From Halieaceae bacterium (GTDB taxonomy: Bacteria > Pseudomonadota > Gammaproteobacteria > Pseudomonadales > Halieaceae), in NCBI GenBank assembly GCA_028282105.1, contig JANQIO010000236.1, forward strand, positions 14,571-78,570: a stretch of DNA of 64,000 nucleotides, written 5' to 3'. The notes beneath the pieces are model-generated. The model did not search any database. It was not told where the DNA came from and worked only from the letters and a program-made list of their open reading frames with translations. Shown here piece by piece: positions 4,979 to 53,080 of this stretch (positions within the stretch are counted from its first letter, which is position 1; every line of letters starts with the position of its first letter). The position numbers were made by a program, and so were the translations under genes.

Positions 4979-5213
4979 GGTAAGCGGCCCTTCTGTGTTG
5001 TCAGGCTGTGTATGGCAGGGTGCCTCGCTACAGTATAAATCCTCGCTGCCGGCAGCAGTGCAGATATCCATGCGCTATCGACTCACTCGCCAGTCTGGTG
5101 CTATGCCGCAACTCCCTGTTATTTAAGCTCTTTTCGGTCATGTTGTTTGGTCAATGCCTGAATCGGGGCTATACTGCGCGCCCCACGCCCGGCAGAGACC
5201 AAGCAGACACTTC

Positions 5214-8217: not shown

Positions 8218-10670
<2,453 letters not shown>

Positions 10671-10714: not shown

Positions 10715-10957
10715 TCAGGGATTCAGGTCCCTGACTTTCTGGGCCAGTTCACCGATGGTGTTGACGTCGGGGAGGATGTTGAGGGGAATGGAGATGTCGA
10801 AGTGGTCTTCGATCTTCTCGATGAATTCCATCACTTCCAGTGAGCTGAGGCCGATGTCCGCCACGAGGTCGGTGGTCTCGGTCAGCTCAACGTTTTTTTT
10901 GTTGAGTGACGCGAGTGCGCCGTACATGAATTCAAGGTATTCGCGGTAGTCGGCCAT
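10715..10957 (-). CDS. Dedicated acyl carrier protein
   Basis: 80 aa, acidic. Phosphopantetheine attachment context DIGLSSLEVMEF. Sits 44 nt upstream of the spt-like gene. Confidence 0.85.
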   Translation of the reverse strand: MADYREYLEFMYGALASLNKKNVELTETTDLVADIGLSSLEVMEFIEKIEDHFDISIPLNILPDVNTIGELAQKVRDLNP

Positions 10958-11033
10958 CCTGCCTGTGCCCTTGCGCCGCTTCTGGCAAGTCGCTAGATTT
11001 CGAAGCCGGAACTATACCCACGGAACATCCTCA

Positions 11034-12086
11034 ATGCCAGCGATTTGGTTAATAGACGCTTACCGCGCCGGTGAGCGCGGTCAGGTGCGCGCGCTGGCAA
11101 GCGCGGTGTCGGCATCCCTGGGTTGGCCCTGTCATACCATCGAGCTGGACTACCGGGCGGCCGTGATCCTGCCACATATTATCGGCGCAGCCAGCGTCAG
11201 TGGCATTACCACGGAGGCCAGGGCCCGGCTGGCGCCACCCTGGCCAGACCTGGTGATTACCTGTGGGGTGCGCAACGAGCCCGTGTGTCGCTGGATCCGA
11301 GAGCAGTCCGGCGGCCACACCCGCTACCTGCACCTGGGCCGGCCCTGGGGGCCCCTGGACAGCTTTGACCTGGTAGTGACCACGCCCCAGTACCGGGTAC
11401 CCAAGCGCGACAATGTCGTCAATAACGAGCTCACCCTGCACGGTCTCGATAGTGAGCGGCTGGCGCAGGCCGCCGAGCGCTGGGGGCCAGAGTTTGCGGC
11501 ACTGCCCGCGCCCTACCTGACCGTCAATGTGGGTGGTAACAGCGGCCCGTTCACCTTTGGCAAGCGAGCCGCGCGGCGGCTTGCCCGAGAGGCCTCGGAC
11601 CTGGTCCGGCAACAGGGCGGTTCGCTGCTGGTCTCTACCAGTTCACGCACCTGCCCAGAGGCGGCGGCGGAACTCGAACGCCATATCGATGTGCCCTGCC
11701 AGGTGTATCACTGGCGCGAGGGCGACCCTGATAACCCCTACCTGGGCATGCTGGCCCTGGCCAAGCAGATCGTGGTGACCGGCGACAGTATTGCCATGCT
11801 GTCGGAGGCCTGCAGTACCGGCAAGCCGGTGTTTATCTTTGACCTGGGGGGGATGCGGGCGGAGGTTCCGGTAGCCAGGGACTTCCGCCTGGGTGGTGCC
11901 CTGTATGGCCTGTTGATGCGCTTCTTCTGGCGGCGCCTGTCCCGGGACATCACCCTGGTGCATCAACGTCTGGTGGCGGCGCGGCGGGCCAGCTGGCTGG
12001 GGGAAGCCGGCAGCCAGGTGCCGGAAACAGCCACCGACCTGGTGCGCACGGTAGACGCGGTTCGCGCGCTACTTGGTCAGGCCTAG
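11034..12086 (+). CDS. ELM1/GtrOC1-family putative glycosyltransferase, paralog A
   Basis: ORF track starts at a GTG at 10965; the ATG at 11034 (MPAIWLIDAYRAGERGQV) is preferred. Blocks PWPDLVITCGVRNEPVCRWIREQSGGHTRYLHLGRPW, DLVVTTPQY and VTGDSIAMLSEA are shared with the two paralogs. The 3' end overlaps the convergent ABC gene by 18 nt. Confidence 0.72.
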   Translation: MPAIWLIDAYRAGERGQVRALASAVSASLGWPCHTIELDYRAAVILPHIIGAASVSGITTEARARLAPPWPDLVITCGVRNEPVCRWIREQSGGHTRYLHLGRPWGPLDSFDLVVTTPQYRVPKRDNVVNNELTLHGLDSERLAQAAERWGPEFAALPAPYLTVNVGGNSGPFTFGKRAARRLAREASDLVRQQGGSLLVSTSSRTCPEAAAELERHIDVPCQVYHWREGDPDNPYLGMLALAKQIVVTGDSIAMLSEACSTGKPVFIFDLGGMRAEVPVARDFRLGGALYGLLMRFFWRRLSRDITLVHQRLVAARRASWLGEAGSQVPETATDLVRTVDAVRALLGQA

Positions 12087-13823
12087 TTCGGGGTCTACGT
12101 CCAGCAGTCGGGCGCTGCCGTCGATCAACTGGTAGACCCGGTCGGCGGCACTGACCATGGCGCGGTTGTGGGAAATGGCGAGAATCGTGAGCTGCCCCTT
12201 GAGCTGTTCCATGGATTCCCGCACCGCGGCTTCACTGTCCGGGTCCAGGGCGCTGGTCGCCTCGTCGAGAATCAACAGTCGCGGCTGATTGACCAGTGCC
12301 CTGGCGATCACTATCCGCTGGCGCTGCCCCCCGGATAATTTGCCGCCCCGTTCGCCGACCACGGTTTCCAGGCCCTCCGGCAGGCGCTGGATGAAGTCCC
12401 AGGCGCCGGCCGCCCGCAGGGCGCGCTCCGCATCCGCCAGACTCAGCTCCGGGTCACCCAGGGTGACGTTGTGCAGGATGCTGTCATGCAGCAACACGGT
12501 GTCCTGGGGCACGTAGCCGATCATGTCGCGCCAGGCGCGAATATCCAGCGCTTCCAGGGAGCGGCCATCGAGCTGGATCTCGCCGCTGTCTGGCCGCAGC
12601 AAACCGATGGTCAAATCGATAATCGTGGTCTTGCCGGCCCCCGATGGCCCCACCAGGGTGGTCAACGAGCCGGCGGGGACATCCAGGGCCAGGCCCTTGA
12701 ACACACTGTGCTTGTCGTAGGCGAAGCTGACGCTGTCAAAGCGAATGCCCTGGTCGAGACTGGGACGCTCGCCGCCGTGAAGCTGCTCGCGGGCGGAGTT
12801 GGCGGCCTCGATGCTGTCGAGCATGGCCCAGTAGGCGCTCTCACCCTGTACCAGCTTCTGGTACTGCTTCTGCACCTTGCCGAGAAAGCTGAAGGCCCGG
12901 CCAAGGGTAACCACCAGCACCATGACGGTGGTGAGCGCCATGCCATAGCCTTCCAGCGCCACGTAAATGCCCAGACAGATGAACAGGGCGAACATCAGTT
13001 CCTGGGCGGAATCGAGGACCGCGGCGCTCAGCACCTGCACTCGCAGAGCCTTGTTGAGCCGCCGGGTCTCGTGGGCGAGTACGGTATCCGCCAGGTGTTC
13101 CCTGGCCATCGCCTTCAGCGGCTTCACAGACTGCAGGGTGTCGGTCAGGTTGGCGATCAGTGAGGTCATCAGGTTGGTTTGCTTGCGGCCCGCCTTGCGG
13201 GTGATGCGCACCAGGAAATGGGACAGGCCGATGACCACCGCGCCGGCGCCAATGGCCACCAGCGATGCCCGCCAGGAGAGTGCGAAGGCCACGCTGCCAT
13301 AGATAACGGCCTGGATCAGGAAAGTGATGGCGGTGGCGCCGTGCACGAAAGAAGCGGAAGAGCGCTGGGCCTCGGTAGCCAGGGAATTGGTGAGCTTGCC
13401 CACTGGCTGGTGCAGGAAGTACTCCCATTTACTGCGCAGCACAGCGCGTAACATCTTCAAGCGCAGGTCGGTGCCGACCTGGGCGGCGGTATAACCTACC
13501 TGGCGCTGGGCCAGCAGCAGGAAGCAGCTCTTCAGCGCCACGCCGGCCACGATGATCAACAGCATGTTGCCCAGTGTCGGGTGGATGCCCAGCGTGTCCA
13601 GCGCGCCCAGCACGGCGGCCTCAAAGCCGGACTGGGCCTCACCGGCGGCACCCAGGCCCAGCTCAGCGGCGGCCGAACTGGCCTCGCCGCCCACGGCGAT
13701 ATTCAGCAGCGGCAGCAGGGCGGACAGACCGACGCCCTCGGCGATGCCCGACAGCAGCAGCGCCACCAGCATCAGCACGGTGTGCAGCCGGTAGGCGCGG
13801 AAAAAACTCAGCATCAGCTTCAT
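12069..13823 (-). CDS. ABC exporter, fused permease/ATPase (MsbA-type architecture)
   Basis: 584 aa with an N-terminal 6-TM domain. Walker A GPSGAGKTT, signature LSGGQRQR, Walker B LLILDEATSALD. Same strand as lptF-lptG and 88 nt downstream of them. Confidence 0.9.
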   Translation of the reverse strand: MKLMLSFFRAYRLHTVLMLVALLLSGIAEGVGLSALLPLLNIAVGGEASSAAAELGLGAAGEAQSGFEAAVLGALDTLGIHPTLGNMLLIIVAGVALKSCFLLLAQRQVGYTAAQVGTDLRLKMLRAVLRSKWEYFLHQPVGKLTNSLATEAQRSSASFVHGATAITFLIQAVIYGSVAFALSWRASLVAIGAGAVVIGLSHFLVRITRKAGRKQTNLMTSLIANLTDTLQSVKPLKAMAREHLADTVLAHETRRLNKALRVQVLSAAVLDSAQELMFALFICLGIYVALEGYGMALTTVMVLVVTLGRAFSFLGKVQKQYQKLVQGESAYWAMLDSIEAANSAREQLHGGERPSLDQGIRFDSVSFAYDKHSVFKGLALDVPAGSLTTLVGPSGAGKTTIIDLTIGLLRPDSGEIQLDGRSLEALDIRAWRDMIGYVPQDTVLLHDSILHNVTLGDPELSLADAERALRAAGAWDFIQRLPEGLETVVGERGGKLSGGQRQRIVIARALVNQPRLLILDEATSALDPDSEAAVRESMEQLKGQLTILAISHNRAMVSAADRVYQLIDGSARLLDVDPELGLTK

Positions 13824-13911: not shown

Positions 13912-14982
13912 TCACCATCGCATCCGCCGCAGCAGCAGCAGGGCCGCGGCCATCACGATCAGCGTGGGGGTGAAGGCAACCACCGGCACGCTGATCGCCA
14001 GCAGCTGGCCCAGCGCGTAAATTATTTGCGCGCCGAGGTAGAACAGGATGCCTACCAGCGCCCCAACCGCCAGGTTGAAACCGAAATTGCTGTTGCGTCG
14101 GGAACCCAGGCTCGCGGCAATCGGCGTGGCCAGCAGCACCATGGCGCCGACGGTCAGCGGCATGGCGAGTTTCTGCCAGAAGGCGCCCAGATAGGTCTGC
14201 CAGGCCTGGCCGTTGGCCTTGCGGAACTGGCTGTAACTGTAGAGCACGGACAGGGTCATGCTGTCGGGTGTCAGAGCCAGGGTGGGCAGCTCGTCCTCTG
14301 CCCACATGCCGCCCACTTCCAGCTCCTGGTAGCCGCGGGTCTGAAACACGCCGTCCACCAGTCGCTTCTCCCGCACCCGTTTCAGCAGCCAACGCCGGCC
14401 CGACACCACCTCCGCACTGCGGGCGTGCAAGGTACGGATCAGCTGTCCCGCCGCGTCGAACTCATACAGGTCGATGCCGCCAGGCACGCCGCCTTCTTCC
14501 AGTCGCGCCAGGTGCACGTAGCGTTGCTGGTGCCGTGCCCAGACGCCGCCATCGGGGATGCGCACGTCGCCGCGATAACGCAGGTGGTGGCGCTGTTGCT
14601 CGGCATACTGGTGCAGGCGAGGGGTGCCGAATTCCTGGCTCGCCCACAGCAAGCCCATCAGTATCAGGGTGGGCAGCGCCACCGCGGTCAGCAGCGAGCC
14701 GCGCGAGACGCCGGCGCAGCTGATCACGGTGAGCTCGTTGTAGCGATCGAGGTTGGCGAGCGCCATGATACTGCCGAGCAAGGCGATGACCGGTGCCAGA
14801 CTCACGAGTTGTTGGGGCAGGGTGAACAGGGTGTAGCGCGCCACCGCCAGCGCGTCGTAGTCAAAGCGGGTGCGCTCGAGCTCGGTGATAAAAGCGATCA
14901 AACCAAATACTGAGCCTACCACCAGCAACACCATCAGCCAGCCTCGCACCAGGTTACCGGCGATATAGCGGTGCAGAATCAT
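13912..14982 (-). CDS. lptG: LptF/LptG-family permease (LptG-like)
   Basis: ORF track extends to 15264; trimmed to the ATG at 14982 (MILHRYIAGNLVRGWLMVLL). The layout of 3 TM, a periplasmic domain and 3 TM resembles E. coli LptG. ATGA overlap with the upstream lptF-like gene. Confidence 0.78.
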   Translation of the reverse strand: MILHRYIAGNLVRGWLMVLLVVGSVFGLIAFITELERTRFDYDALAVARYTLFTLPQQLVSLAPVIALLGSIMALANLDRYNELTVISCAGVSRGSLLTAVALPTLILMGLLWASQEFGTPRLHQYAEQQRHHLRYRGDVRIPDGGVWARHQQRYVHLARLEEGGVPGGIDLYEFDAAGQLIRTLHARSAEVVSGRRWLLKRVREKRLVDGVFQTRGYQELEVGGMWAEDELPTLALTPDSMTLSVLYSYSQFRKANGQAWQTYLGAFWQKLAMPLTVGAMVLLATPIAASLGSRRNSNFGFNLAVGALVGILFYLGAQIIYALGQLLAISVPVVAFTPTLIVMAAALLLLRRMRW

Positions 14983-16106
14983 GTGGCCGCCGCCTGCTTC
15001 TGTCGCCGGCGCCAGCGCGGTGGATTCACCAGCAACACCAGGATAACCAGCACTACCGCGTGGGCAGCCCACAGGCCCGGGAAGCGCGGCACGGTACCCT
15101 GTTCGATGCCGGTGCGCATCACGGCGGTGAGGCTCAACAGGCCGATGTAGATCCCCAGCGCCACAAAGAAACTGCGCAGCCGCGATTCCCTCGGAGCGGT
15201 GCGCCCCAGCGGTACGGCTACCAGGGCCAGCAGCAGCGTGGCAATCGGTGTGGTGATACGCCACTGGTACTCGGCGATATCCTTGGGTTCTGCTGACCGC
15301 GAGAGGGTGAGGGTGGTTTCTGCCTTGCGCCGGTACTGCTCCCTGGCTTCTTCATTGGCCAGGTGGACCTCCATGCGCTTGAACTGCAGTGTGATGTCCT
15401 GGCGCTCGCGCTTGTCGAGCAGGTAGTTGTAGCCGTTGTGAAATTCCGCGGTTAGCGCCTGGCCCGGGTTCAGGGTAGGCAGTGCGGCGGATTCCGCGAT
15501 GATGATTTCCTCGCGCCCCTTACCCGGGTAGTGCTTCTGCATGAAGATGCCCTTGTGCAGGCCGCGATCCAGGTCAAGACCCTGGGCGATGAAGGTATAG
15601 TCGCTGCCCTCCATGTTGACGAACTCACCGGCCGACATCTTCTTCAGGTCAAACTGTGCGGCGGCTTCAGCTTCCAGACGATAGCTCTCGCGATAGGCCC
15701 AGGGTCGGCCGAGCATGGAGACCACGCCAGTGACGATGGCCACCACGACGGCCAGCTTGAACACCGCCTCCAGGATGCGCGTGCGGCTGAGACCCGCAGC
15801 GTAGAGGGCGTTCATTTCTGCATCGCGATACATGCGGCCAATGGCAGCGAGCACCGAGAAGAAAAAGGCGGATGGCAGTAACACCTCCAGGGTCACCAGC
15901 GTGTTGAGCCCCACCAGTTTGAAGGCCGTGAGCATATCCAGCTTTCCCTGGGCGGCCAGCCCCAGTTGCACGGATGCGGAGTAACCAATGAACACCAGAA
16001 TCAGCAGGCCGAGGCCGGAGACAAAGGGGCGCAGGATTTCCAGGCTTATGTAGCGATCGACGATCAAGCGAGCGGTCCCTGTCCGCGAGGGGGTTGTTGC
16101 GCGCAT
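14979..16106 (-). CDS. lptF: LptF/LptG-family permease (LptF-like)
   Basis: ORF track extends to 16580; trimmed to the ATG at 16106 (MRATTPSRTGTARLIVDRYISLEILRPF). The true start could be a few codons further in. The upstream extension runs through a tandem repeat array and is judged non-coding. Confidence 0.72.
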   Translation of the reverse strand: MRATTPSRTGTARLIVDRYISLEILRPFVSGLGLLILVFIGYSASVQLGLAAQGKLDMLTAFKLVGLNTLVTLEVLLPSAFFFSVLAAIGRMYRDAEMNALYAAGLSRTRILEAVFKLAVVVAIVTGVVSMLGRPWAYRESYRLEAEAAAQFDLKKMSAGEFVNMEGSDYTFIAQGLDLDRGLHKGIFMQKHYPGKGREEIIIAESAALPTLNPGQALTAEFHNGYNYLLDKRERQDITLQFKRMEVHLANEEAREQYRRKAETTLTLSRSAEPKDIAEYQWRITTPIATLLLALVAVPLGRTAPRESRLRSFFVALGIYIGLLSLTAVMRTGIEQGTVPRFPGLWAAHAVVLVILVLLVNPPRWRRRQKQAAAT

Positions 16107-16245: not shown

Positions 16246-16390
16246 AAATGCCTCCAGCCATTAAATGGCCTCCAGCCTGTAGAGGGCCTGTGGCCAGTAA
16301 AGGGCCTCCAGCTAATTACAGGGCCTCCAGCCAATACCACTGGTCCGGCGCCAGCCAGCACCACTGGCAGGCTTCCAGCCCAGACCCAGA
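16246..16390. repeat. Degenerate tandem array, about 7 units of 18-25 bp with core GGCCTCCAGCC
   Basis: Read directly: aaatgcctccagccatt / aaatggcctccagcctgtagag / ggcctgtggccagtaaag / ggcctccagctaattacag / ggcctccagccaataccactggtcc / ggcgccagccagcaccactggcag / gcttccagcccagaccc. Lies in the divergent region between lptF (-) and sulfotransferase 1 (+). Confidence 0.85.
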
Positions 16391-16401: not shown

Positions 16402-17334
16402 ATGATCAAGCTGAGCGACGGCGTCAAGAAGGCGCTGATACTCATTCCTACCGAGCCCCTGCCCGCAAAAACCCGGGTGGCGCTGCGTCGCAAGCACCTG
16501 GCGAACCTGGAGCTGGCCAAAGCCCATGCCGCCCAGTTCCTGATCATCGGCCATCCCAAGAGTGGCAATACCTGGCTCAAGGTGATGATCTCCAGGTTGT
16601 ACCAACTGCGCTACGACCTGCCCGAATCCAAGCTCATCAACACCGACGAGTTCGCCCGCAAGATTCCCGAAATCCCGAGGCTCGCTGCCACCAACGGCGT
16701 CTATAGCTACGAAGGCGAGGTGGGCAAACTGCTCGCAGTCGGCGCCGCAGATAACCCCCTGCGCCACAAGCCGGTACTGTTCCTGGCGCGCAACCCGATC
16801 GACATCGCCGTAAGCTGGTATCACCAGTTCACCAAGCGCCAGTCCCGCGCCAAGCAGGAATTGATCAACCACTCCATCGAACATCCTATCGATCGCCGCA
16901 CGGTGCAGATGTGGGATTTCGTGCGGCATTCCGATATTGGGCTGCCGTTCCTGATCGGCTACCAGAATCAATGGGCTGAAGCGATCGCCGAGCTGCCCCG
17001 GGGCCTGATGGTGCGCTACGAGGATCTGCGCGCCGACCCGGTGCCAACCCTGCACAAGATTGTCGAGCATATGGGCGAGAGTTTCTCCGAAGATGAGGTG
17101 CGCGCCGCGGTGGAGTGGGGCTCCTTTGACAACCTGCAGAAGCTGGAAACCAGCGGCACCTTCAGCCAGGGTGGCATGAAACTGGTGAACAAGAACGACC
17201 CCAGCACCTACAAGGTGCGGCGCGGCAAGGTGGGTGGCTATCGGGACGACTTTGAGCCGGCGCAGGTGGCCGAGTTGGAAGCGCTGGTGCGGGAGACTAT
17301 TTCTCCTCAGCTCGGCTACTGCCGCGAGGACTGA
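16402..17334 (+). CDS. PAPS-dependent sulfotransferase, paralog 1 (divergent)
   Basis: 310 aa. 5'-PSB loop GHPKSGNTW, block LARNPIDIAVSWYH, and C-terminal RRGKVGGYRDDF, all as in Sulfotransfer_1-type enzymes. Confidence 0.85.
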   Translation: MIKLSDGVKKALILIPTEPLPAKTRVALRRKHLANLELAKAHAAQFLIIGHPKSGNTWLKVMISRLYQLRYDLPESKLINTDEFARKIPEIPRLAATNGVYSYEGEVGKLLAVGAADNPLRHKPVLFLARNPIDIAVSWYHQFTKRQSRAKQELINHSIEHPIDRRTVQMWDFVRHSDIGLPFLIGYQNQWAEAIAELPRGLMVRYEDLRADPVPTLHKIVEHMGESFSEDEVRAAVEWGSFDNLQKLETSGTFSQGGMKLVNKNDPSTYKVRRGKVGGYRDDFEPAQVAELEALVRETISPQLGYCRED

Positions 17335-17335
17335 G

Positions 17336-18469
17336 ATGCCGCCGCGCACCTGGGTGATTCTCAGTGACAAGCGGGGCGACAACGGGCAGGTCGATACCAT
17401 TGTCGACGCCCTGGGCTGGCCGGTGGAGCACAAGTATGTGCACATGAAGCCGGAGTGGGTGCTGGGCAAGCCGCGCTACCGGCCATCCCTGGAGCACCTC
17501 GATCTGGCGCAGTCCGATAAGCTCGAAGGACCCTGGCCCGACCTGATTATCACGGTGGGGCGCCGGCCCTCGATGGTCGCGCTGTGGGTGCGCCAACAGT
17601 CCGGCAATCACACCCGCATTGTGCTGGTCGGCAAGCCCTCAGGACACATGCTCGATTTCTCCCTGGTGGTGGCCAGTGCGGAAAACCAGATGCCGCCGCT
17701 GCACAACTTCCAGGCCACAACCCTGCCGCTGATGCGCATCGCGCCGCAGGACGTGGCCAGTGAAGCAGCAGCCTGGCGCGAACGCTTTGCCGAGCTCAGA
17801 CGGCCAATGATTGCCATGCTGATCGGCGGCGAGACCAACCCCTTTATCATGAACCGCAAGGTAGCCCGCGAGCTGGTGGCCACTGCCCGCTGGGTCATCG
17901 ATGAGCTGGGCGGCACACCTTACATCACCACCAGCCGCCGCACTACGCCCAAGGTGCTGGAAGTATTGCGCGCGGAGTTGCCGGAAGAGGCGGTCTACTT
18001 CGAGTGGTCGGCGGATGCTACGGACAACCCCTACCGGGCACTGCTTGGATCCGCCGACGGCTTTATTGTCACTGGCGACAGCGTGTCGATGATGGTGGAG
18101 GTTATCTACCTCCACAAGCCTTTGGCTATCTTTCCTCTGCCCGGGGGCTGGCTGGGTAAGGTCGATCAGCTGCGCCGGTCACTGGCGCACTGGCTGTTCC
18201 GGCCGCAGCTACGCTCGGGTTTTGACAGGCTGCGCCACGCGGTGGCGCGGGGTGTGTACTACATCGACGTCTTCAAGGTGCTGAGTGCTACCCGGGATTT
18301 TCGCGCCTTCCACCGGCTGCTGGTAGACAACGGCTACGCGGTCTGGGCTGGGCAGCCATTCCGAACCGAGGAGGCGCCGCTGCCCGATGACGTGGGTATT
18401 GTGGTGAAGAGGATCGAGGCGCTTTTTTCGGAGCAGCTTGTGGAAGTAAATCCGCAACAGCGGCCTTAA
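17336..18469 (+). CDS. ELM1/GtrOC1-family putative glycosyltransferase, paralog B
   Basis: ORF track starts at 17234; the ATG at 17336 (MPPRTWVILSDKRGDNGQV) lies 1 nt after the sulfotransferase stop codon. Blocks PWPDLIITVGRRPSMVALWVRQQSGNHTRIV and VTGDSVSMMVE. Confidence 0.72.
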   Translation: MPPRTWVILSDKRGDNGQVDTIVDALGWPVEHKYVHMKPEWVLGKPRYRPSLEHLDLAQSDKLEGPWPDLIITVGRRPSMVALWVRQQSGNHTRIVLVGKPSGHMLDFSLVVASAENQMPPLHNFQATTLPLMRIAPQDVASEAAAWRERFAELRRPMIAMLIGGETNPFIMNRKVARELVATARWVIDELGGTPYITTSRRTTPKVLEVLRAELPEEAVYFEWSADATDNPYRALLGSADGFIVTGDSVSMMVEVIYLHKPLAIFPLPGGWLGKVDQLRRSLAHWLFRPQLRSGFDRLRHAVARGVYYIDVFKVLSATRDFRAFHRLLVDNGYAVWAGQPFRTEEAPLPDDVGIVVKRIEALFSEQLVEVNPQQRP

Positions 18470-19092
18470 CGCATACCCAGCACGTTCTTCATGAAGTGAG
18501 TGCCGAAGCGGCTGATGCGCTGGGCGGCGACCGCCAGTGGGCTCTGGTCCAGGTAGTTGAGCTGCACCATGCGGCGCTCACCGACAAAGCGGGTGTGCCC
18601 GTGCCAGGAATGGTCGGTGCGGCGAAAGGCCAGCAGGGTGCCACCCAGCGGTTTGACCTGGGCTGTGTAGTCCTCGATATCCGACCTGGAGCGCAGCATA
18701 CGCAGCTGACCTTCCTCGTGGTCCCACTGCTCGTTGAAGTACACCAGCACAGTGATCACTTTGCTCTTGTGATCGGTGTGGATATTGCCGTCTGTGCGTT
18801 CACAGAATTTACGTACCGTGACCGTGGTGGGCAGGCTGGCGAGATCCATATCGAAGCGCTCGCCCAGCACTTCGGCAAATGCCCGCCCCTGGATTTCCTC
18901 CATCAGCGATGCGAAAGCCGGCCCGTAGCTGAGGTTGTCCAGGGCGTGGTTGGCCGCCGTATCGATGGCGGGATAGTCGGCGTTCACCGTCGCCAGGGTA
19001 TCCGCGGACAGGAAGCCGGGCGCCACCATGAAGTCGAAGGGGTCGCTGTGAAGCTCCGCGCTGCGGAGCGCTTCTAGGTTGATCATTGACAT
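18466..19092 (-). CDS. Small 2OG-Fe(II) oxygenase-superfamily protein, paralog A
   Basis: ORF track extends to 19155; trimmed to the ATG at 19092 (MSMINLEALRSAELHSDPFDF). HxD...H triad candidates in NIHTDHKSKVITVLVYFN and HSWHGHT. Confidence 0.65.
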   Translation of the reverse strand: MSMINLEALRSAELHSDPFDFMVAPGFLSADTLATVNADYPAIDTAANHALDNLSYGPAFASLMEEIQGRAFAEVLGERFDMDLASLPTTVTVRKFCERTDGNIHTDHKSKVITVLVYFNEQWDHEEGQLRMLRSRSDIEDYTAQVKPLGGTLLAFRRTDHSWHGHTRFVGERRMVQLNYLDQSPLAVAAQRISRFGTHFMKNVLGMR

Positions 19093-19173
19093 GCGCGAAT
19101 TGTACGGGCTCGCGCGAAAGCGCAGCAAGCGGGACGCCCGGTAATAGTGCGGCAAATCAAGAATTCCTGTATC

Positions 19174-20130
19174 ATGCGCCGCCTTTTCAAGCCGGAGAAA
19201 TCCCCGCCCATGGGCGACAAGGCCCGCGCCGCCGCGCGCATCCTTATTATGCTGTTGAGCTTCTGGTTGCCCGCCGAGCGTCGCAAGCGCCTGGAGCGCT
19301 GGCTGCGAGGCCGCGAGGAGTTCAAGAAGCTTGAGCGCTGCGACTGGGTGCTGATGAGCTGGGGGAAATCCGGACGTACCTGGCTGCGGGTCATGCTGTC
19401 CCGCGCCTACCAGCTGAGGGGTGGCCTGCCTTCGGATGAACTACTGGACTTCGACAACTTCCGAGACCGGGACGCATCGCTGCCGGCAGTGTTCTTTACC
19501 CACAACAACTACCTGCGCAATTACACAGGCAACTGGGGGTCCAAGGCGCACTTCCAGGGCAAACGCATTGTGCTGCTGGTACGCGACCCCCGCGACGTGG
19601 CGGTGTCCCAGTTCTTCCAGTGGAAGTTCCGGATGCGGCCCAACAAGAAGTTCATCAACGATTATCCTCCGCATGGCGCCGCCATCGACGTCTGGGATTT
19701 TGTGCAGGACGTGGACGCAGGCGTGCCTCGTATCGTCGACTACTTCAATGGCTGGGCGCGGGCGATGCCGGAGCTCGGGGAGGTACTGGTGATACGTTAC
19801 GAGGACATGCGTACGGACCCGTCCAGGGTGCTGCGGCAGATCTTTGATTTCACCGGCACCGAGATTAGCGATGCGCAAATTGGCGAAGCCGTAGAGTTCG
19901 CCGCTTACGAGAATATGAAGAAGATGGAGCAGGAACGCCACTTCAAGGGCTCGGGTGCCAGAGTGAAACCCGGCGACAAGGACAACCCCCAATCCTTCAA
20001 AGTGCGCAAGGCCAAGGTGGGGGGCTACCGCGACTACTTTACTGACGAGCAGTGCCAGCAGCTAGAGGCCATGGTAGCTGAGCTCGACCCGCAGTTTGGT
20101 TATGGCACACAGGTGGAGCCGGCGGCGTGA
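19174..20130 (+). CDS. PAPS-dependent sulfotransferase, paralog 2
   Basis: ORF track starts at a GTG at 19147; the ATG at 19174 is preferred. 5'-PSB loop WGKSGRTW, block LLVRDPRDVAVSQFFQWKF, and C-terminal RKAKVGGYRDYF. Confidence 0.85.
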   Translation: MRRLFKPEKSPPMGDKARAAARILIMLLSFWLPAERRKRLERWLRGREEFKKLERCDWVLMSWGKSGRTWLRVMLSRAYQLRGGLPSDELLDFDNFRDRDASLPAVFFTHNNYLRNYTGNWGSKAHFQGKRIVLLVRDPRDVAVSQFFQWKFRMRPNKKFINDYPPHGAAIDVWDFVQDVDAGVPRIVDYFNGWARAMPELGEVLVIRYEDMRTDPSRVLRQIFDFTGTEISDAQIGEAVEFAAYENMKKMEQERHFKGSGARVKPGDKDNPQSFKVRKAKVGGYRDYFTDEQCQQLEAMVAELDPQFGYGTQVEPAA

Positions 20131-21065
20131 AGCTGGCTATCCAGAACCTGCGGCAGGCCCTGCAAACCGCCAACAAGAAGCTGTCGCGGCGAATCCTGCA
20201 CTGGCGTATGCGCGGCAAATCTGAAGTGGAAATTCTTGAAGCCGAGCGCAAGCTGCGCGGCGTTGAGCAGTATGACAAGCTGCGTCGGGCCGACGTTGTG
20301 GTAGTGAGCTTTGGCAAGAGCGGCCGCACCTGGCTGCGGGTCATGGTGTCGCACCTGTTTCGGGTCATGCACGGGCTACCGGATAACGCCATTCTCGGCT
20401 TTGACAATTTTCACAACCTCAATCGCGCGGTGCCGAAAGTCTTCTTTACCCACGACAATTACATCAAGGACTTCACCGGCGACTTTGATACCAAGCAGCC
20501 TTTTTATGACAAGAAGGTTGTGCTGCTGGCCAGGGACCCTCGGGACGTGGCCGTGTCACAGTTCTTCCAGTGGAAGTTCCGCATCAAGCCCTCAAAGGTG
20601 GCCATCAACAACTATCCCCCCCGCGGCTCGGATATCAGCCTGTTCGACTTCGTCACCGGCGACAACGGCGGCAGCATGCGGGCGGTGTGCGACTACCTGA
20701 ACCTTTGGGCGGCGGAAGCCGGCAAGGTCGAGGATTTTTTCCTGCTGCGCTATGAGGAACTGCGCTCGGAACCGCACAGGAAATTGCGGGAGATGCTCGA
20801 CTTTATGCAGGTGGATGCCAGCGATGACCACGTGGATGCTGCAGTGGAATACTCCTCCTACGAAAACATGAAGAAAATGGAGAGTAAGCAGCAGTTTCGC
20901 CTGGCGGGCGGTCGCATGATGCCGCGGGACAAGGACAACCCCAACAGTTACAAGGTGCGGCGAGCCAAGGTGGGCGGCTACCGGGACTACTTCAACGACG
21001 ACGAAGTCCAGGCGATCGACCGCCTGCTGGCAGAATCACTGCACCCGCTGTTCGAGTACTCCTGA
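20127..21065 (+). CDS. PAPS-dependent sulfotransferase, paralog 3
   Basis: GTG start at 20127 overlaps the paralog 2 stop (GTGA). 5'-PSB loop FGKSGRTW, block LLARDPRDVAVSQFFQWKF, and C-terminal RRAKVGGYRDYF. Confidence 0.85.
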   Translation: MKLAIQNLRQALQTANKKLSRRILHWRMRGKSEVEILEAERKLRGVEQYDKLRRADVVVVSFGKSGRTWLRVMVSHLFRVMHGLPDNAILGFDNFHNLNRAVPKVFFTHDNYIKDFTGDFDTKQPFYDKKVVLLARDPRDVAVSQFFQWKFRIKPSKVAINNYPPRGSDISLFDFVTGDNGGSMRAVCDYLNLWAAEAGKVEDFFLLRYEELRSEPHRKLREMLDFMQVDASDDHVDAAVEYSSYENMKKMESKQQFRLAGGRMMPRDKDNPNSYKVRRAKVGGYRDYFNDDEVQAIDRLLAESLHPLFEYS

Positions 21066-21711: not shown

Positions 21712-21720
21712 TGAAGCTGC

Positions 21721-22272: not shown

Positions 22273-22285
22273 AGTGTCTCTCCCG

Positions 22286-23382: not shown

Positions 23383-24285
23383 TCAGGCGGCCCGGACAGC
23401 GTCAACCAGGTCGAAGGCGTCTTCGCGCAGGTGGCCGGCGCTGATCTCGTCCTGGAGTTGTGCCTCGCTGATCTCGCCGGCATCCAGGCACTCTTTCACG
23501 AGGCCGAAGAAAAAGGCTTCCTGGGCCGGGTCGGGATGCTGGGCGTAGGTGCCGGCAAACTTGTAGTCGCCGAACAGGGCGCGCCGGGCGCGGCGCAGCC
23601 AGTGGCGTGGCGGGAACAGTTGGAAGGTATCGGCCGGCCGGTAGTCAATCTTGAGGCCGGTTTTCCAGGGCTGGGTCTTGCGCTTGGTGTTATGCAGTAG
23701 CTTGGTGTCCGCGGTGAGATTGTCGAAGTCGTTCCACTCGTTTTCCAGCACGCCGATGGTTGCCGGGTCCTCCAGCTTCAGGGATACCCAATCCATGTAG
23801 TCGCGGCGTACGTCGGGCTCGAACATCGCTTCGAAGTTCTCCTCGAACTTCCAGTGGCCGAGTTTCTCGCAGTCCAGCAGCATCACGCTGGATGCCCAGG
23901 CACCCTTGCGGCCCTTGCGGCCTGACTTGGGCCGGCACATGATGGCCTTGCCGCCCATATCGCGTTGCAGCAAATCCTGCACATCGGCGAGGGCAAAAAT
24001 ATCCGGGTCCATAACCACCGCGCGCCCCTGGTAGCCCATAAGCTGGGGCGGTGCGAAGCGCAGGGGCGTGAAGGACTGCAGGTCCTCGTTGACCCAGGGG
24101 CGCATTTCGCCGTCCCGGCGGTAGCGCTTGCCTTCGCGCGCCGCCATGCAGGGGAAATCCTTGACCTCGATGAACCTCACATCGAAGGCATCCGGGTTGT
24201 GGGCGTGCTTCTTCAGGGAGAAGCGGCTCACCAGCGCACCGAGCATCTGCTTGTGGTTGGTGTGAATAAATACCGTGGGTTTCAT
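23383..24285 (-). CDS. Uncharacterised GT-A-like (GT8-like topology) putative glycosyltransferase, paralog A
   Basis: 300 aa. Blocks FIHTNHKQ, LQSFTPLRF, GRAVVMDPDIFA (DxD-like D-P-D), ASSVMLLDCEKL, EWNDFD and HPDPAQEAFFFGLVKEC. The block order mirrors GT8 enzymes, but I cannot name a family. Confidence 0.5.
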   Translation of the reverse strand: MKPTVFIHTNHKQMLGALVSRFSLKKHAHNPDAFDVRFIEVKDFPCMAAREGKRYRRDGEMRPWVNEDLQSFTPLRFAPPQLMGYQGRAVVMDPDIFALADVQDLLQRDMGGKAIMCRPKSGRKGRKGAWASSVMLLDCEKLGHWKFEENFEAMFEPDVRRDYMDWVSLKLEDPATIGVLENEWNDFDNLTADTKLLHNTKRKTQPWKTGLKIDYRPADTFQLFPPRHWLRRARRALFGDYKFAGTYAQHPDPAQEAFFFGLVKECLDAGEISEAQLQDEISAGHLREDAFDLVDAVRAA

Positions 24286-24323: not shown

Positions 24324-25388
24324 ATGAGCGAACACGAGCCAAATATCTGGTGCTTGCTGGGCAGGAAGGCGGGCGATAATACACAGGTGCGCGCCCTCGC
24401 AGAAGCCCTGGCTGTCAGATTCACGGAAAAACAGATTCTTGCCCGCGCTTACGAACTGCTACCGCAGCTGCTGCTGCGCGTCACGCTCGCCGGTATCGAC
24501 CGCGGTGCCTCCAGCGAGCTGGCGCCGCCCTGGCCAGACCTGGTGATCACCGCGGGCCGCCGCAATGAACCGGTAGCTCGCTGGATTCAGCGTCAGTCTG
24601 GCGGTCACACGCGGCTGGTTCACATCGGCCGACCCTGGGCGCCGCTGGACGCCTGGGACCTGGTGATCACCACGCCTCAGTATTTCCTGCCTGAACAGGC
24701 CAATGTGCTACACAACCAGCTACCGCTGCACCGTCGCCAGGCAGGGGAGGTCCCCGATCAGTGGCGCCAGCGTTTCGAGCCCTTGCCGCGACCGCTGATC
24801 GCAGTGCTGGTGGGGGGCGACAGCGGCAAATTTGTCATGACCGATGACAAGGGCCGGCGGCTCGGGCAGCTGGCGGGCGGGCTGGCGCAGCGGGCCGATG
24901 GCTCTCTGGTGTGCGTTGCCAGTCCCCGCACCCCAATATCGGCGTTTGCGGCACTCAGTGACAGTGCCGGGGCACCGGCCCAGTGCTTTCCCTGGGGAGG
25001 TGAAAATCCCTATCAGTCACTGTTGGCATTGGCGGACGCTTTCGTGGTCACCGGTGAGTCCATGTCCATGCTGGGGGAGGCCGCTGACAGCGGCAAGCCG
25101 TTGTTGATCTACGATATGGCAGACCCGGACCCGCGCTGGTGGCGGCAGGCTCACAACTATCGCTACAAACCCCTGAGCCATCGACTGGCGATGCGATTCG
25201 GTCCGCAGCGAATGCGGCGCGATGTCGGGCGTATTCAGCACGCCCTGGTGCGGGCGGGCCAGGCCAGCTGGCTCGCCGAGGGGTCGACAGTGTCGGGGCA
25301 GAGCGCTGCAGTTGTAGCGCCGTTTGATAGCAGCGCCGAGCTGCTGCGCTCGGCGCAGGCGGTCAGGCGGCTTCTGCCACCGCGCTGA
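24324..25388 (+). CDS. ELM1/GtrOC1-family putative glycosyltransferase, paralog C
   Basis: 354 aa. Blocks PWPDLVITAGRRNEPVARWIQRQSGGHTRLVHIGRPW, DLVITTPQY and VTGESMSMLGEA. The 3' end overlaps the convergent GT-A-like paralog B by 26 nt. Confidence 0.72.
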   Translation: MSEHEPNIWCLLGRKAGDNTQVRALAEALAVRFTEKQILARAYELLPQLLLRVTLAGIDRGASSELAPPWPDLVITAGRRNEPVARWIQRQSGGHTRLVHIGRPWAPLDAWDLVITTPQYFLPEQANVLHNQLPLHRRQAGEVPDQWRQRFEPLPRPLIAVLVGGDSGKFVMTDDKGRRLGQLAGGLAQRADGSLVCVASPRTPISAFAALSDSAGAPAQCFPWGGENPYQSLLALADAFVVTGESMSMLGEAADSGKPLLIYDMADPDPRWWRQAHNYRYKPLSHRLAMRFGPQRMRRDVGRIQHALVRAGQASWLAEGSTVSGQSAAVVAPFDSSAELLRSAQAVRRLLPPR

Positions 25389-26307
25389 GTGGGTGTTGTG
25401 AGGGCGGCGGCAGGTCCGGCGTGCGTGCCAGTACCTCGAAAGCGTCGTGGCGGACGTGGTTTTGCGCCATCTCCTTGCGGATGAACTCCTCGCTGATCTT
25501 GCCCTGCTCGATACACTCCTTGAGCAAGCCGAAGAAGAAGTTCTCCTGGTTCTGGTCCGGGTGCTGCTTGTAGTTGCCCAGGAAAGCGTATTCACCGAAC
25601 AGCTTGCGGCGCGCGCGCATGATCCAGGCCGCTGGCGGGAACAGCCGGAAGCGCTCCGCGGGTCGCCAGTCGGTGGGCAACCCGGTCTTCCAGGGCTGGG
25701 TCTTGCGACGGGTAGTGTGCAGCATCTTGGTGTCGGTGGTGAACTTGTCGAAGTCGTTCCACTCGGCCTCGAAGAAGTCAATGCTGTCGCGGTCTTCTTC
25801 CTTCAGGCACACCCAGGGCTGGTAGTCCTGGGTGAAATCGAACATGGCGCGAAACTTGGCTTCCGCATCCCAGTGCGTCAGCTTGGCGCAGTCGAGGAGC
25901 ATCACGCTGGAGGCCATGCAGCGGTCAACCAAACCTTTGGGCCCGGAGCGCATGCGGCACATGATGGCCTTGCCCTGCATGTCTCGGTTCAGCAATTCCC
26001 AGATGTCGGCAGCGGCAAAGATGTCCGGATCGATCACCACCGCGCGACCTTCAAAGCCCATCAGGCCCGGGGGCATGAAACGGGTGGGGGTGAAGGATTG
26101 CAGGTCGTCATTCAGCCAGGTGCGCTTGACCCCGTCGCGCAGGTACTCCTTGCCTTCAAACTCGGCGAAGAACGGGTAGTCGCGACTGTCCATGATCTGG
26201 ACATCGAACTTGTCATTGTTGGTGGAGTAACGGCGCAGGGCGTGCTCGGCAACAATCGCACCGGTAATCTGCTTGTGATTGGTCTGGATGAATACGCAGG
26301 CTTTCAT
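25363..26307 (-). CDS. Uncharacterised GT-A-like putative glycosyltransferase, paralog B
   Basis: ORF track extends to 26340; trimmed to the ATG at 26307 (MKACVFIQTNHKQ). Same blocks as paralog A (LQSFTPTRF, GRAVVIDPDIFA, EWNDFD, HPDQNQENFFFGLLKEC). Confidence 0.5.
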   Translation of the reverse strand: MKACVFIQTNHKQITGAIVAEHALRRYSTNNDKFDVQIMDSRDYPFFAEFEGKEYLRDGVKRTWLNDDLQSFTPTRFMPPGLMGFEGRAVVIDPDIFAAADIWELLNRDMQGKAIMCRMRSGPKGLVDRCMASSVMLLDCAKLTHWDAEAKFRAMFDFTQDYQPWVCLKEEDRDSIDFFEAEWNDFDKFTTDTKMLHTTRRKTQPWKTGLPTDWRPAERFRLFPPAAWIMRARRKLFGEYAFLGNYKQHPDQNQENFFFGLLKECIEQGKISEEFIRKEMAQNHVRHDAFEVLARTPDLPPPSQHPLSAVAEAA

Positions 26308-26408: not shown

Positions 26409-27371
26409 TCAGCGCGAGTAGTAGTTGATGCTGCGCCCGGTGAGGGAGGTGTAGAGCACCCCGAAGGCCTTGGCCATGCGGTACAGGTTGTGCATCAGCA
26501 TGCCCTTGGAGAACACTGAAAAGGGCAGCAAAAACAACGACATAAGGATTTTGCTGAGGGAGGTGGCCAACAGTTTAATGGCCCGTATGCCGGTGCCGTG
26601 GGCGCGCGCCATGCTGACCTGCGAGCAGCCATTCTTGAACCCTCGCTTGAGCAGGCCGCGGGCGGTGTAGCGCTCGGGCTCATGGTTGCGGTGAATCACC
26701 GACATATCCGCCGATGCCAGGCTGGCCCCCAACTCGTGGGCGCGAATGAAGAAGTCCTTGTCCTCGCCACCGCTGAAGCGGAAGGTGTGGTTGAACACCG
26801 GGCCGATGGTGGCGATCCGCTCGAGGATGCTGCGGCCCACCAAGGCGTTGCAGGTGGAGGCACAGCCGGGCAGGCCGTAGCGGCCGCCTTTGTTTTCATG
26901 CTTGGCTTTCACCGGTGAGCGGAAGATCCCGGATTCCCTCGCCCATTGGGGCATGAAGGAATCGAGCACCCAGGTACCGAATACCAGGTCGGCGCCGGTC
27001 ACGGCCTGCCGGTCCAGCAGCTGGATGAGCCAGTCGGACTGCGGCTGGTCGTCGTCGTCGATAAAGGCCAGGAAATCGGCGCCCCGCTCCAGGGCCACCT
27101 CGACCCCGCGGTTGCGGGCGTAGGTTATACCGGAGCGCGGCTCGGTCACGTAGTGAATAGAGATCGGCAGGCGCGGCGCCGCGCGCTGGCAGATGGCTTC
27201 GGTTTCGGGATTGGGGTTGTTGTCAACCACGATCAGCTCCACCGAGCTCGGGTTGTAGCCGCTGAGGTCGATATCCTGCAGCGCGACCAGCAGGCGCATC
27301 AGTCCCTGGGAGCGACTGTGGGTGCAGACGCAGATGGCGACCCGCAGGTCGATGATCGTGCTGACTGTCAT
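26409..27371 (-). CDS. Family 2 glycosyltransferase
   Basis: ORF track extends to 27440; trimmed to the ATG at 27371 (MTVSTIIDLRVAICVCTHSR). Blocks VVDNNPNPET, ARNRG and AFIDDDD (DxD) fit the GT2 pattern. Confidence 0.82.
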   Translation of the reverse strand: MTVSTIIDLRVAICVCTHSRSQGLMRLLVALQDIDLSGYNPSSVELIVVDNNPNPETEAICQRAAPRLPISIHYVTEPRSGITYARNRGVEVALERGADFLAFIDDDDQPQSDWLIQLLDRQAVTGADLVFGTWVLDSFMPQWARESGIFRSPVKAKHENKGGRYGLPGCASTCNALVGRSILERIATIGPVFNHTFRFSGGEDKDFFIRAHELGASLASADMSVIHRNHEPERYTARGLLKRGFKNGCSQVSMARAHGTGIRAIKLLATSLSKILMSLFLLPFSVFSKGMLMHNLYRMAKAFGVLYTSLTGRSINYYSR

Positions 27372-27394
27372 GGTGAGACTGTCATTGTGAATTG

Positions 27395-31228: not shown

Positions 31229-31345
31229 TGAGATCAATAACTTGGGGCCGGCGAAAGGCGGCAAAAATACCACAGAATCTTGTGCATGGACCACGCATCC
31301 TTTACCCTGCGCGTTTTTTAACCTGCCCGGTTCCGGGGACATTAC

Positions 31346-44142: not shown

Positions 44143-44153
44143 CCTTGCGCGCG

Positions 44154-44495: not shown

Positions 44496-44510
44496 TTTTT
44501 TATAAGACCG

Positions 44511-53076: not shown

Positions 53077-53080
53077 GGAG

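Follow-up and report, generated by a model that had tools for sequence, protein, structure and literature searches.

Four sulfotransferase genes within a sphingolipid-type locus of Halieaceae and a predicted sulfated, ceramide-anchored glycolipid

What might a bacterium sulfate with four sulfotransferases encoded in a single locus? The question is raised by a 64,000-nucleotide stretch of a Halieaceae bacterium genome (assembly GCA_028282105.1, contig JANQIO010000236.1, positions 14,571 to 78,570; hereafter the window), in which four genes for sulfotransferases predicted to use 3'-phosphoadenosine 5'-phosphosulfate (PAPS), here ST1 to ST4, sit within a roughly 35-kb Halieaceae locus for sphingolipid synthesis and export. 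We propose, with confidence that is about evenly balanced, that these enzymes would sulfate the headgroup of a ceramide-anchored glycolipid in the cytoplasm, followed by Lpt-type export of the lipid. A first-pass annotation of the window had framed the acceptor as lipopolysaccharide (LPS) or a generic envelope lipid and missed the sphingolipid context, in which serine palmitoyltransferase (Spt), an acyl carrier protein (ACP), a fatty acyl-AMP ligase (FAAL), a DAGK_cat kinase and LptF/LptG are all encoded in the same locus. Its broader suggestion, that the acceptor lies in a membrane lipid, we judge plausible.

The four sulfotransferases

The four open reading frames (ORFs) reported in the first-pass annotation are all present, with a G+C content at third codon positions (GC3) of 0.79–0.81, as in coding sequence:

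16402..17334, + strand: ST1, 310 aa, divergent Sulfotransfer_1 paralogue (Pfam E 1.6e-22)
19147..20130, + strand: ST2, 327 aa as ORF, Sulfotransfer_1 with catalytic His (FFTHNNY) (Pfam E 1.3e-23)
20127..21065, + strand: ST3, 312 aa, Sulfotransfer_1 with catalytic His (FFTHDNY) and GTG start (Pfam E 5.7e-25)
31346..32290, + strand: ST4, 314 aa, Sulfotransfer_1 that keeps the catalytic His, with a basic, amphipathic helix at its N-terminus (Pfam E 3.3e-23)

Each protein matched Pfam PF00685 (Sulfotransfer_1) far above the gathering cut-off of 22 bits (80.6, 84.2, 88.6 and 82.8 bits for ST1 to ST4, respectively), with Sulfotransfer_3 as a weaker secondary match, and no NCBIfam model matched any of the window sulfotransferases at E <= 0.01. 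Searches of PDB sequences returned cytosolic SULTs, plant SOTs and the antibiotic sulfotransferases StaL and Teg (best E 3.5e-12, for ST1 against AtSOT16). The motifs that had first drawn attention to these genes were found as quoted, namely the 5'-phosphosulfate-binding (PSB) loops HPKSGNTW, WGKSGRTW, FGKSGRTW and YGKSGRTW, the 3'-phosphate-binding (3'-PB) block R(N/D)P(I/R)D(I/V)AVS and the C-terminal R(G/A)KVGG(Y/F)RD(D/Y)F. PKSGNTW of ST1 and GKSGRTW of ST2–4 align with PKSGT(H/T)W of SULT7A1 and AtSOT16, and the 3'-PB block and C-terminal motif R(R/K)(G/A)KVGGYRD(D/Y)F align with their SULT counterparts (RNPKDxxVS; RKGxxGDW-type). The alignment of ST3 with mouse SULT7A1 spans the PSB loop, the His ('ffthdny' vs 'ipthlny'), the RxPxDxxVS 3'-phosphate segment and the C-terminal RKG-type motif. 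Across 160 ST sequences (3 ST1, from extra loci, 31 ST2, 44 ST3 and 82 ST4), there is essentially no variation in the PSB lysine, the Arg...Ser pair or the RK(G/A)K..G motif, and the His of FF(T/S)H(D/N)NY, which aligns with 'ipthlny' of SULT7A1, is kept in 157/157 ST2–4 sequences.

An AF2 model of ST1, the sole ST modelled (pLDDT 81, pTM 0.81), gave 84 Foldseek matches in the PDB at E <= 1e-3 (TM 0.46–0.64), and all 50 of the matches listed were PAP/PAPS-type sulfotransferase-family structures, including retinol dehydratase and LGS1. It superposes on PAP-bound SULT structures, the top matches being PAP-bound SOT18 and SULT1A1 (TM 0.55–0.63 over ~280–300 columns), at only 17–22% identity to the cytosolic SULT and plant SOT structures. 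Judged by Pfam, by PDB sequence matches and by the Foldseek matches of ST1, ST1–ST4 can be assigned to the cytosolic-SULT-type sulfotransferases, with PAPS-dependent sulfotransfer as their predicted activity. They have the fold and all PAPS-binding motifs in common with cytosolic SULTs and plant SOTs (SULT1A1, SULT2A1, SULT7A1, AtSOT16/18), and ST2–4 also the catalytic His, whereas ST1 differs in having Asn; unlike these enzymes, the window STs are bacterial, carry basic amphipathic N-termini and lie within a lipid/glycan operon. The earlier label 'eukaryote-like' mainly mirrors which members of the family have solved structures. Among 1.84 billion 50%-identity cluster representatives, the subfamily numbers 1002 at E <= 1e-30 and 4233 at E <= 1e-10; ST4 has 4463 homologues, of which the top 120, at 77–100% identity, are mostly from Halieaceae (Halioglobus, Haliea, Mangrovimicrobium and Halieaceae metagenome-assembled genomes (MAGs)).

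The N-termini, previously described as basic extensions of 40–60 aa, are basic (net +6 to +8), but their length is roughly normal for the fold because the PSB lysine (residue 53 in ST1, ST4 and start-corrected ST2; residue 64 in ST3) lies close to its position in human SULT1A1, residue 48. The true start of ST2 is probably ATG 19210 (Met22) rather than GTG 19147, since its Halioglobus orthologue is 303 aa long and a start at the GTG makes the ORF run into the divergent oxygenase gene. Residues 5–22 of ST4 form a strongly amphipathic helix (helical moment 0.83), and no signal peptide is evident on reading the sequences of ST1–4.

Every ST is tightly packed against a partner gene. The GTGA overlap of the ST2 stop and the ST3 GTG start noted in the first-pass annotation was confirmed at 20127–20130, and an identical 4-nt overlap is found in a Halioglobus genome. 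The stop of ST1 lies 1 nt from the ATG of ELM1b, an adjacency repeated in Halioglobus (locus L081), and the stop of ST4 lies 1 nt from the ATG of GTXc; both partners are predicted glycosyltransferase genes (listed below), and the two junctions speak for a glycolipid acceptor. In two further loci (L075 and L082), ST4, GTXc and the oxygenase gene 2OGb overlap or abut.

A locus for ceramide, headgroup and export

A GC3 screen of ORFs combined with Pfam and NCBIfam family scans of the window produced a gene map in which the following genes for lipid synthesis, kinase and export functions surround the STs:

83-1057: LpxL-like (LpxL-family) acyltransferase, first gene of the map
1145..2068, - strand: NAD-dependent short-chain dehydrogenase/reductase (SDR), CerR-like ceramide reductase candidate (Pfam Epimerase / NAD_binding_10)
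2077..3846, - strand: FAAL, acyl-ACP synthetase candidate (NF006624, 791 bits)
5154..6356, + strand: 400-aa weakly GNAT-like protein, bacterial ceramide synthase candidate (Pfam Acetyltransf_1 E 1e-4)
6366-7184: MobA-like nucleotidyltransferase
9468..10670, - strand: Spt (NF047599 equivalog, 593.6 bits vs cut-off 500; PDB SPT 2x8u E 8e-120)
10715..10957, - strand: dedicated ACP beside Spt, 80-aa ORF with GLSSLE serine motif (orthologue annotated PF00550 PP-binding)
12069..13823, - strand: ABC exporter, type IV half-transporter, non-MsbA, candidate flippase (TIGR02203)
13912..14970, - strand: LptG-family permease (TIGR04408, 260 bits vs cut-off 240)
14979..16100, - strand: LptF-family permease, divergent from ST1 (TIGR04407, 273 bits vs cut-off 230)
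27395..28321, - strand: 308-aa protein with faint Tam41/Mmp37 resemblance (Pfam E 0.016, below threshold)
28318..29283, - strand: DAGK_cat lipid kinase, candidate ceramide kinase, CpgB-like (Pfam E 8.9e-12)
30059..31240, - strand: Wzy_C membrane protein, O-antigen ligase/polymerase-like, accessory (Pfam E 1.9e-09, 37.9 bits vs 31.7)
33967..34677, + strand: 4'-phosphopantetheinyl transferase (PPTase), which would activate the ACP (Pfam ACPS E 3.4e-16)

The same locus encodes seven predicted glycosyltransferases, three GT8-like (GTX), three ELM1-type (GT-B) and one GT2, together with two 2-oxoglutarate (2OG) oxygenases:

10965..12086, + strand: ELM1a, PF06258 putative GT-B glycosyltransferase (Pfam E 1.8e-60)
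17336..18469, + strand: ELM1b, PF06258 (GT-B clan) putative glycosyltransferase (Pfam E 1.1e-49)
18466..19155, - strand: 2OGa, 2OG-Fe(II) oxygenase, divergent from ST2-ST3 (2OG-FeII_Oxy_3 E 9.8e-09)
23383..24285, - strand: GTXa, GT8-like, 55% identical to GTXc, synteny conserved
24324..25388, + strand: ELM1c, PF06258 putative GT-B glycosyltransferase (Pfam E 1.2e-52)
25363..26307, - strand: GTXb, GT8-like, 57% identical to GTXc, 81–98% identity across Halieaceae loci
26409..27440, - strand: GT2 glycosyltransferase, accessory (Pfam E 1.6e-19)
32292..33212, + strand: GTXc, predicted from its model to be a GT8-like GT-A enzyme, with DPD motif and without a Pfam match
33245..33961, + strand: 2OGb, 2OG-Fe(II) oxygenase-like, third of the ST4-GTXc-2OGb trio (Pfam E 1.1e-4, below gathering score)

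The GTX proteins belong to a family of 5618 homologues (E <= 1e-3) that has no Pfam family and reads 'hypothetical protein' throughout among the matches listed, with an invariant DPD motif and a C-terminal HPD...FFFGL segment as its conserved features. The AF2 model of GTXc (pLDDT 66) found XXYLT1, GlyE and LgtC as its top Foldseek matches (E 2e-5 to 1e-4, TM ~0.35), and the GT8-like fold suggested by the model is consistent with the conserved DPD motif. A profile of the three GTX paralogues gave zero matches to PDB sequences, and NCBIfam contained zero models for the ELM1 or GTX proteins. Members of PF06258, of the GT-B clan, are predicted glycosyltransferases in Acinetobacter outer-core loci (PMC4172580).

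The known system closest to this gene content is that of Caulobacter crescentus, where CC_1152-CC_1168 includes the ceramide genes spt, acpR, aasR, cerR and cerS (PMC11324152), the headgroup is made by the DAGK_cat-type ceramide kinase CpgB, the PgsA-like CpgA, CpgC and the cytidylyltransferase CpgD (PMC9393093), and second copies of LptF, LptG and LptC (LptF2/G2/C2) accompany a putative flippase (PMC11324152; bioRxiv 10.64898/2026.04.12.717747). According to Uchendu et al., many alpha- and gammaproteobacterial sphingolipid loci contain lptF2 and lptG2 (bioRxiv 10.64898/2026.04.12.717747). Like the Caulobacter CPG2 locus, the window holds Spt, a dedicated ACP, an acyl-ACP synthetase candidate, candidate CerR-like and acyltransferase genes, a CpgB-like DAGK_cat kinase and a MobA-like nucleotidyltransferase with a CpgD-like fold. 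The lipid locus likewise includes LptF/LptG, which stand between ST1 and an ABC exporter. The product predicted for the window is, as in Caulobacter, an anionic outer-membrane sphingolipid. However, no CDP-alcohol phosphatidyltransferase domain, as expected of a PgsA-like CpgA counterpart, was found in any scanned window ORF, so the window does not encode a CPG2 pathway; for CpgC, which is devoid of recognisable domains, there is nothing to search with. In place of the CPG headgroup genes, the window has four STs, seven predicted glycosyltransferases and two 2OG oxygenases. The STs are without counterpart in the Caulobacter papers, where 'sulf' occurs 0–1 times (PMC11324152; bioRxiv 10.64898/2026.04.12.717747), and negative charge would come from sulfate esters in the window lipid as opposed to the phosphoglycerate of CPG2.

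Several systems offer likenesses on the side of sulfation. In eukaryotic sulfatide synthesis, GAL3ST1 uses PAPS to sulfate a glycosylceramide headgroup, which yields an anionic glycosphingolipid; it belongs to the galactose-3-O-sulfotransferase family and works in the Golgi lumen. The chemistry is conceptually the same, but the window STs are PF00685 enzymes of cytosolic-SULT-like type; the resemblance is one of function and not of homology. Rhizobial LpsS and NodH and mycobacterial Stf likewise perform PAPS-dependent sulfation of envelope glycolipids or lipo-oligosaccharides in bacteria, a likeness drawn from their described function; their acceptors are LPS, Nod factor or trehalose glycolipids, and not sphingolipids. 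The first-pass annotation had held that characterised bacterial sulfotransferases are single genes, which is too strong, as the xss (synechan) cluster of Synechocystis carries two alongside eight glycosyltransferases, in numbers that match the sugar-to-sulfate stoichiometry of the product (PMC8205485). This match provides a precedent for ST and glycosyltransferase counts that mirror a product. Both xss and the window combine several STs with many glycosyltransferases, but xss has Wzx/Wzy polymerisation and export of a polysaccharide with two STs, whereas the window has Spt, ACP, LptFG and four STs, and no Wzx or polysaccharide co-polymerase (PCP) gene was seen in family scans of the window.

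The association of these genes is not peculiar to the window. One genome per GTDB species was scanned, yielding 457 ST2–4 relatives, and the best 79 loci, almost all from Halieaceae, were mapped. Nearly every Halieaceae contig of sufficient length has the order ST2-ST3-GTXa-ELM1c-GTXb-(GT2)-unknown-DAGK-unknown-(Wzy_C)-ST4-GTXc-2OGb-PPTase, and 2OGa lies beside ST2 in many loci. In a complete Halioglobus genome the genes for GNAT, nucleotidyltransferase, metallophosphoesterase, MurA-like protein, Spt, ACP, ELM1, ABC, LptG, LptF and ST1 are contiguous, and the series continues through ELM1, GT61, 2OG, ST2, ST3, GTX, ELM1, GTX, an unknown gene and DAGK. The GT2 and Wzy_C genes are either both present or both absent across Halieaceae loci (L001-L074), with STs and GTX constant, and a GT61 gene follows ELM1b in some relatives; the GT2/Wzy_C co-occurrence and the GT61 alternative suggest strain-level variation of the headgroup.

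The trio ST4-GTXc-2OGb is kept in nearly all of 82 loci, some of them outside Halieaceae. In a non-Halieaceae gammaproteobacterium (L075, ST4 at 66% identity), it lies between FAAL and CerR-like genes on one side and GNAT and DAGK genes on the other, so that both the CerR-like SDR and GNAT-like ceramide candidates adjoin it, with nucleotidyltransferase and metallophosphoesterase genes near by; in L076 and L077, DAGK is directly 3' of the trio. Elsewhere, in Mangrovimicrobium, Haliea sp. E17 and strain WMMBA7 (loci L082, from Mangrovimicrobium sediminis, L055 and L008), it stands alone within +/-10 kb and therefore behaves as a cohesive, portable three-gene unit. The neighbours of the lone trio in these three loci are genes for cytochrome bd, a sigma-54 activator, an ABC importer and a PLD-like protein. 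One locus (L020, JBLFXU010000064.1) comes from a MAG labelled Bacteroidia, yet it is a Halieaceae locus in identical order with ~80% protein identity; the public entry has probably been binned wrongly.

The STs fall into what sequence comparison indicates are four ancient orthologous groups. Identity within each group across species is 80–90%, compared with 44–48% between groups among ST2/3/4 and 31–36% between ST1 and the others, in agreement with the earlier view that ST2–4 are mutually closer and ST1 divergent. It follows that the duplications long predate the radiation of the host family, and four such distinct groups imply four different positions of sulfation.

From these elements, a pathway can be proposed. 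Spt with its own ACP and the acyl-AMP ligase, the ceramide-synthase-like N-acyltransferase and the CerR-like reductase would make ceramide, on which the DAGK_cat kinase and seven glycosyltransferases would assemble a headgroup on the cytoplasmic side of the inner membrane, with hydroxyl groups introduced by the two 2OG oxygenases. ST2, ST3 and ST4, using His as the base, would each move sulfate from PAPS onto a different headgroup hydroxyl, and ST1 possibly likewise via a different base, while the basic amphipathic N-terminal helices would keep the STs at the membrane. To our knowledge, PAPS and nucleotide sugars are found in the cytoplasm only, and as no signal peptide was seen in ST1–4, headgroup assembly and sulfation would thus take place on the inner face of the inner membrane. 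The polyanionic product would then be flipped by the ABC exporter of the locus and extracted toward the outer membrane by LptF/LptG, resulting in an anionic outer-membrane lipid whose charge derives from sulfate, which is abundant in seawater, instead of phosphate.

Several observations weigh against this pathway. The searchable literature contained nothing to link Halieaceae with sphingolipids or sulfated lipids. The domain matches behind the assignment of ceramide synthase, CerR and ceramide kinase are weak or generic (for the CerS- and CerR-like candidates, the GNAT match at E 1e-4 and an SDR/Epimerase domain), the GTX model is of low confidence, and ST1 is without the catalytic His. No PAPS-synthesis gene occurs among the scanned window ORFs, and the Mangrovimicrobium trio has zero sphingolipid genes within 10 kb. 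LptF and LptG pass the NCBIfam equivalog cut-offs for LPS export and could be a housekeeping pair, and GT8-like, ELM1-type, Wzy_C and LpxL-like genes are also typical of LPS-core loci.

Other acceptors and the active site of ST1

The last two points bear on LPS as an alternative acceptor. The target of the STs might be LPS, in its core oligosaccharide or lipid A, or else a different glycan of the envelope, on the model of LpsS in Sinorhizobium. The sphingolipid genes would then merely share a chromosomal region of general outer-membrane biogenesis with the STs, core or O-unit would be built by the glycosyltransferases and LptFG would be the ordinary LPS exporter. To the LptF and LptG scores can be added the LpxL-family acyltransferase at the start of the window, the Wzy_C ligase-like gene, the resemblance of the GT8-like fold to LgtC-type core glycosyltransferases, the presence of ELM1-family genes in Acinetobacter lipooligosaccharide outer-core loci (PMC4172580) and the occurrence of the ST4 trio apart from sphingolipid genes. 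However, neither a Kdo transferase nor a heptosyltransferase (GT9/GT30) nor other hallmark core genes were found among scanned window ORFs, a result that covers the window only and leaves room for copies in other parts of the genome. With 250 bits for TIGR02203 (cut-off 602), the ABC exporter is not MsbA, and in the PDB search it scored higher with PglK (187.7 bits) than with E. coli MsbA (165.2 bits). The window LptF reaches only 137 bits to P. aeruginosa LptF, which seems too little for orthologues in two gammaproteobacteria that are fairly closely related and hints at LptF paralogy. Wzy_C and GT2 are dispensable across the family, but the STs are not, and the trio in L075-L077 abuts sphingolipid-type genes, not lpx/waa. 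With evidence on both sides, we consider sulfation of LPS or another envelope glycan the main rival reading, though less likely than the ceramide-anchored glycolipid.

Sulfation could instead fall directly on the ceramide or sphingoid base, at hydroxyls made by the 2OG oxygenases, for instance, or at C1, giving a sulfate counterpart of ceramide-1-phosphate, with the glycosyltransferases serving a separate branch. The position of the oxygenase genes, 2OGa divergent from ST2-ST3 and 2OGb after ST4-GTXc, would fit such chemistry. So would the observation that, in structure, the STs most resemble SULTs that act on lipids, steroids and small molecules, and not carbohydrate sulfotransferases. Yet four STs exceed the plausible hydroxyls of a ceramide, ST1 and ST4 lie 1 nt from glycosyltransferase genes and the Pfam match of 2OGb is below threshold, making this a rather improbable account. 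That the STs act on small soluble or secondary metabolites unrelated to the envelope, as might be thought because their closest solved structures are those of small-molecule SULTs and of StaL and Teg12, sulfotransferases for glycopeptide antibiotics, is very improbable given that no polyketide synthase, non-ribosomal peptide synthetase or other secondary-metabolite core genes were found in the locus and that every conserved neighbour across ~80 genomes is a lipid, glycan or export gene.

The active site of ST1 poses a separate question, which concerns ST1 alone and is compatible with any acceptor. By alignment placement, ST1 reads AATNGVY where ST2–4 have the catalytic His, which would put an Asn at the active-site His position, with PAPS-binding motifs intact. 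The Asn is invariant in 10 ST1 orthologues (AATNG(V/Y)Y vs FFTHDNY in ST3) and recurs in distant clade representatives at 47–54% identity (P0370, P0371), as opposed to the His kept at this column in 84/107 aligned sequences (103 full-length family representatives and the four window proteins). ST1 is 84–93% identical across >120 sequence clusters and is therefore functional in some way. One possibility, of which we are doubtful, is that ST1 is unconventional: a PAPS-binding but non-catalytic partner, an enzyme with another base such as the conserved Glu of SYEGE, or one in which sulfation serves as leaving-group activation. The invariance of the Asn speaks for this, as does the presence of LGS1 and retinol dehydratase, in which sulfation is taken to be leaving-group activation, among the Foldseek matches of the ST1 model. 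On the other hand, the PAPS-binding motifs are fully intact, the protein as a whole is under strong purifying selection, and Glu is the base in other PF00685 members, such as heparan sulfate NST and 3-OST.

Extending the proposal of a sulfated ceramide-anchored glycolipid beyond the window, we suggest tentatively, and with a little less than even confidence, that a lipid of this kind, bearing several sulfates, is made in Halieaceae (OM60/NOR5) and in certain other gammaproteobacteria of the sea by a dedicated module of GT8-like and ELM1-type glycosyltransferases, 2OG oxygenases and four STs, and exported by a sphingolipid-specific ABC/LptFG route, that it may serve as a phosphate-free anionic lipid of the outer leaflet, and that the ST1 clade with His replaced by Asn may form a mechanistically distinct subtype.

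Further features of the window and significance of the locus

The remainder of the gene map comprises the following:

between FAAL and the GNAT-like gene: secreted protein
before MurA: metallophosphoesterase, convergent with the nucleotidyltransferase gene
8218-9657, - strand: MurA equivalog (TIGR01072, 573 bits)
21373-23374, insert between ST3 and GTXa: DksA/TraR-type zinc-finger gene, MOSC-domain gene and FAD (DAO) oxidoreductase gene
between the DAGK_cat and Wzy_C genes: secreted gene
3' of the PPTase gene: housekeeping genes rplM-rpsI and petABC
44153-44500: RNase P RNA class A (Rfam, 321 bits)
45704-62294: mraZ and dcw cell-division cluster through ftsZ

An Rfam scan and the remaining ORFs gave housekeeping features alone for the rest of the window. 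The context of RNase P RNA and dcw shows that the lipid locus lies in the core chromosome and not on an island. The MurA gene is immediately downstream of spt in the same orientation, an adjacency kept in Halioglobus, where stop and start share one base; it is either the housekeeping murA, sharing a transcript with spt, or a gene for an enolpyruvyl transferase whose target is the headgroup. A CpgA homologue it is not, CpgA being PgsA-like (PMC9393093) and the window gene a MurA equivalog. The DksA/MOSC/DAO block is confined to the closest relatives and is not at this position in most Halieaceae loci. The 27395-28321 protein is always beside the DAGK_cat gene and has a nucleotidyltransferase-like GS...D.D motif, and a PDB sequence search with it gave nothing relevant; as Tam41/Mmp37 is a phosphatidate cytidylyltransferase (CDP-diacylglycerol synthase), it could activate ceramide phosphate as a CDP-lipid.

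Three repeated sequences were also considered. A 14-nt tandem repeat (TAGTCAGGGACGCT; 7168-7276, 7.8 copies, 91% matches) starts in the last bases of the nucleotidyltransferase gene and extends to the 3' end of the metallophosphoesterase gene. About five 18-nt direct repeats (GCCTCCAGC + 9 nt) occupy 16250-16349 in the intergenic region between the divergent LptF and ST1 genes; they are absent at the same place in Halioglobus L081 and hence strain-specific, and were rejected as a conserved regulatory element. The 23-nt block that the first-pass annotation reported in ST2–4 does occur in exactly three copies (19609, 20559 and 31745; matches in 0/100 shuffles). It encodes an invariant peptide, QFFQWKFR, in preferred GC-ending codons, and given this peptide the probability of three-way identity is ~0.007. 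The exact 23-mer is found in only 8/82 related loci and the longest runs common to ST2–4 are only 23–26 nt. Gene conversion was rejected as its origin on these two grounds, run length and lack of conservation in relatives; the block would be mostly codon bias on an invariant peptide, and offers gene conversion weak support at best.

How bacteria make sphingolipids and export them by Lpt-like systems has reportedly become clear only recently, and essentially from Caulobacter, where the anionic headgroup is phosphoglycerate. Against this background, the ST enzymes are new members of a known family, whereas the locus, to judge from the literature that could be searched, is a kind of bacterial sphingolipid locus not described before. 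A search of that literature for bacterial sphingolipids together with sulfotransferases returned nothing relevant, and the sulfated glycosphingolipid that the locus predicts is not reported in the bacterial literature so searched.

Halieaceae are described as abundant in coastal seawater (PMC10100682). The proposal of a sulfated ceramide-anchored glycolipid can be put to a direct test in cultured isolates, among them Halioglobus japonicus, Haliea sp. E17 and Mangrovimicrobium sediminis. If LPS proves to be the acceptor instead, sulfated LPS would still be predicted in a major marine clade. If the proposal is correct, it would assign a role to GTX and to bacterial ELM1/PF06258, families with little or no functional annotation, and would extend bacterial sphingolipid chemistry to sulfated glycosphingolipids, providing a bacterial counterpart of sulfatides, a sulfate-based analogue of CPG2 and a concrete case of sulfate replacing phosphate in the charge of the outer membrane.

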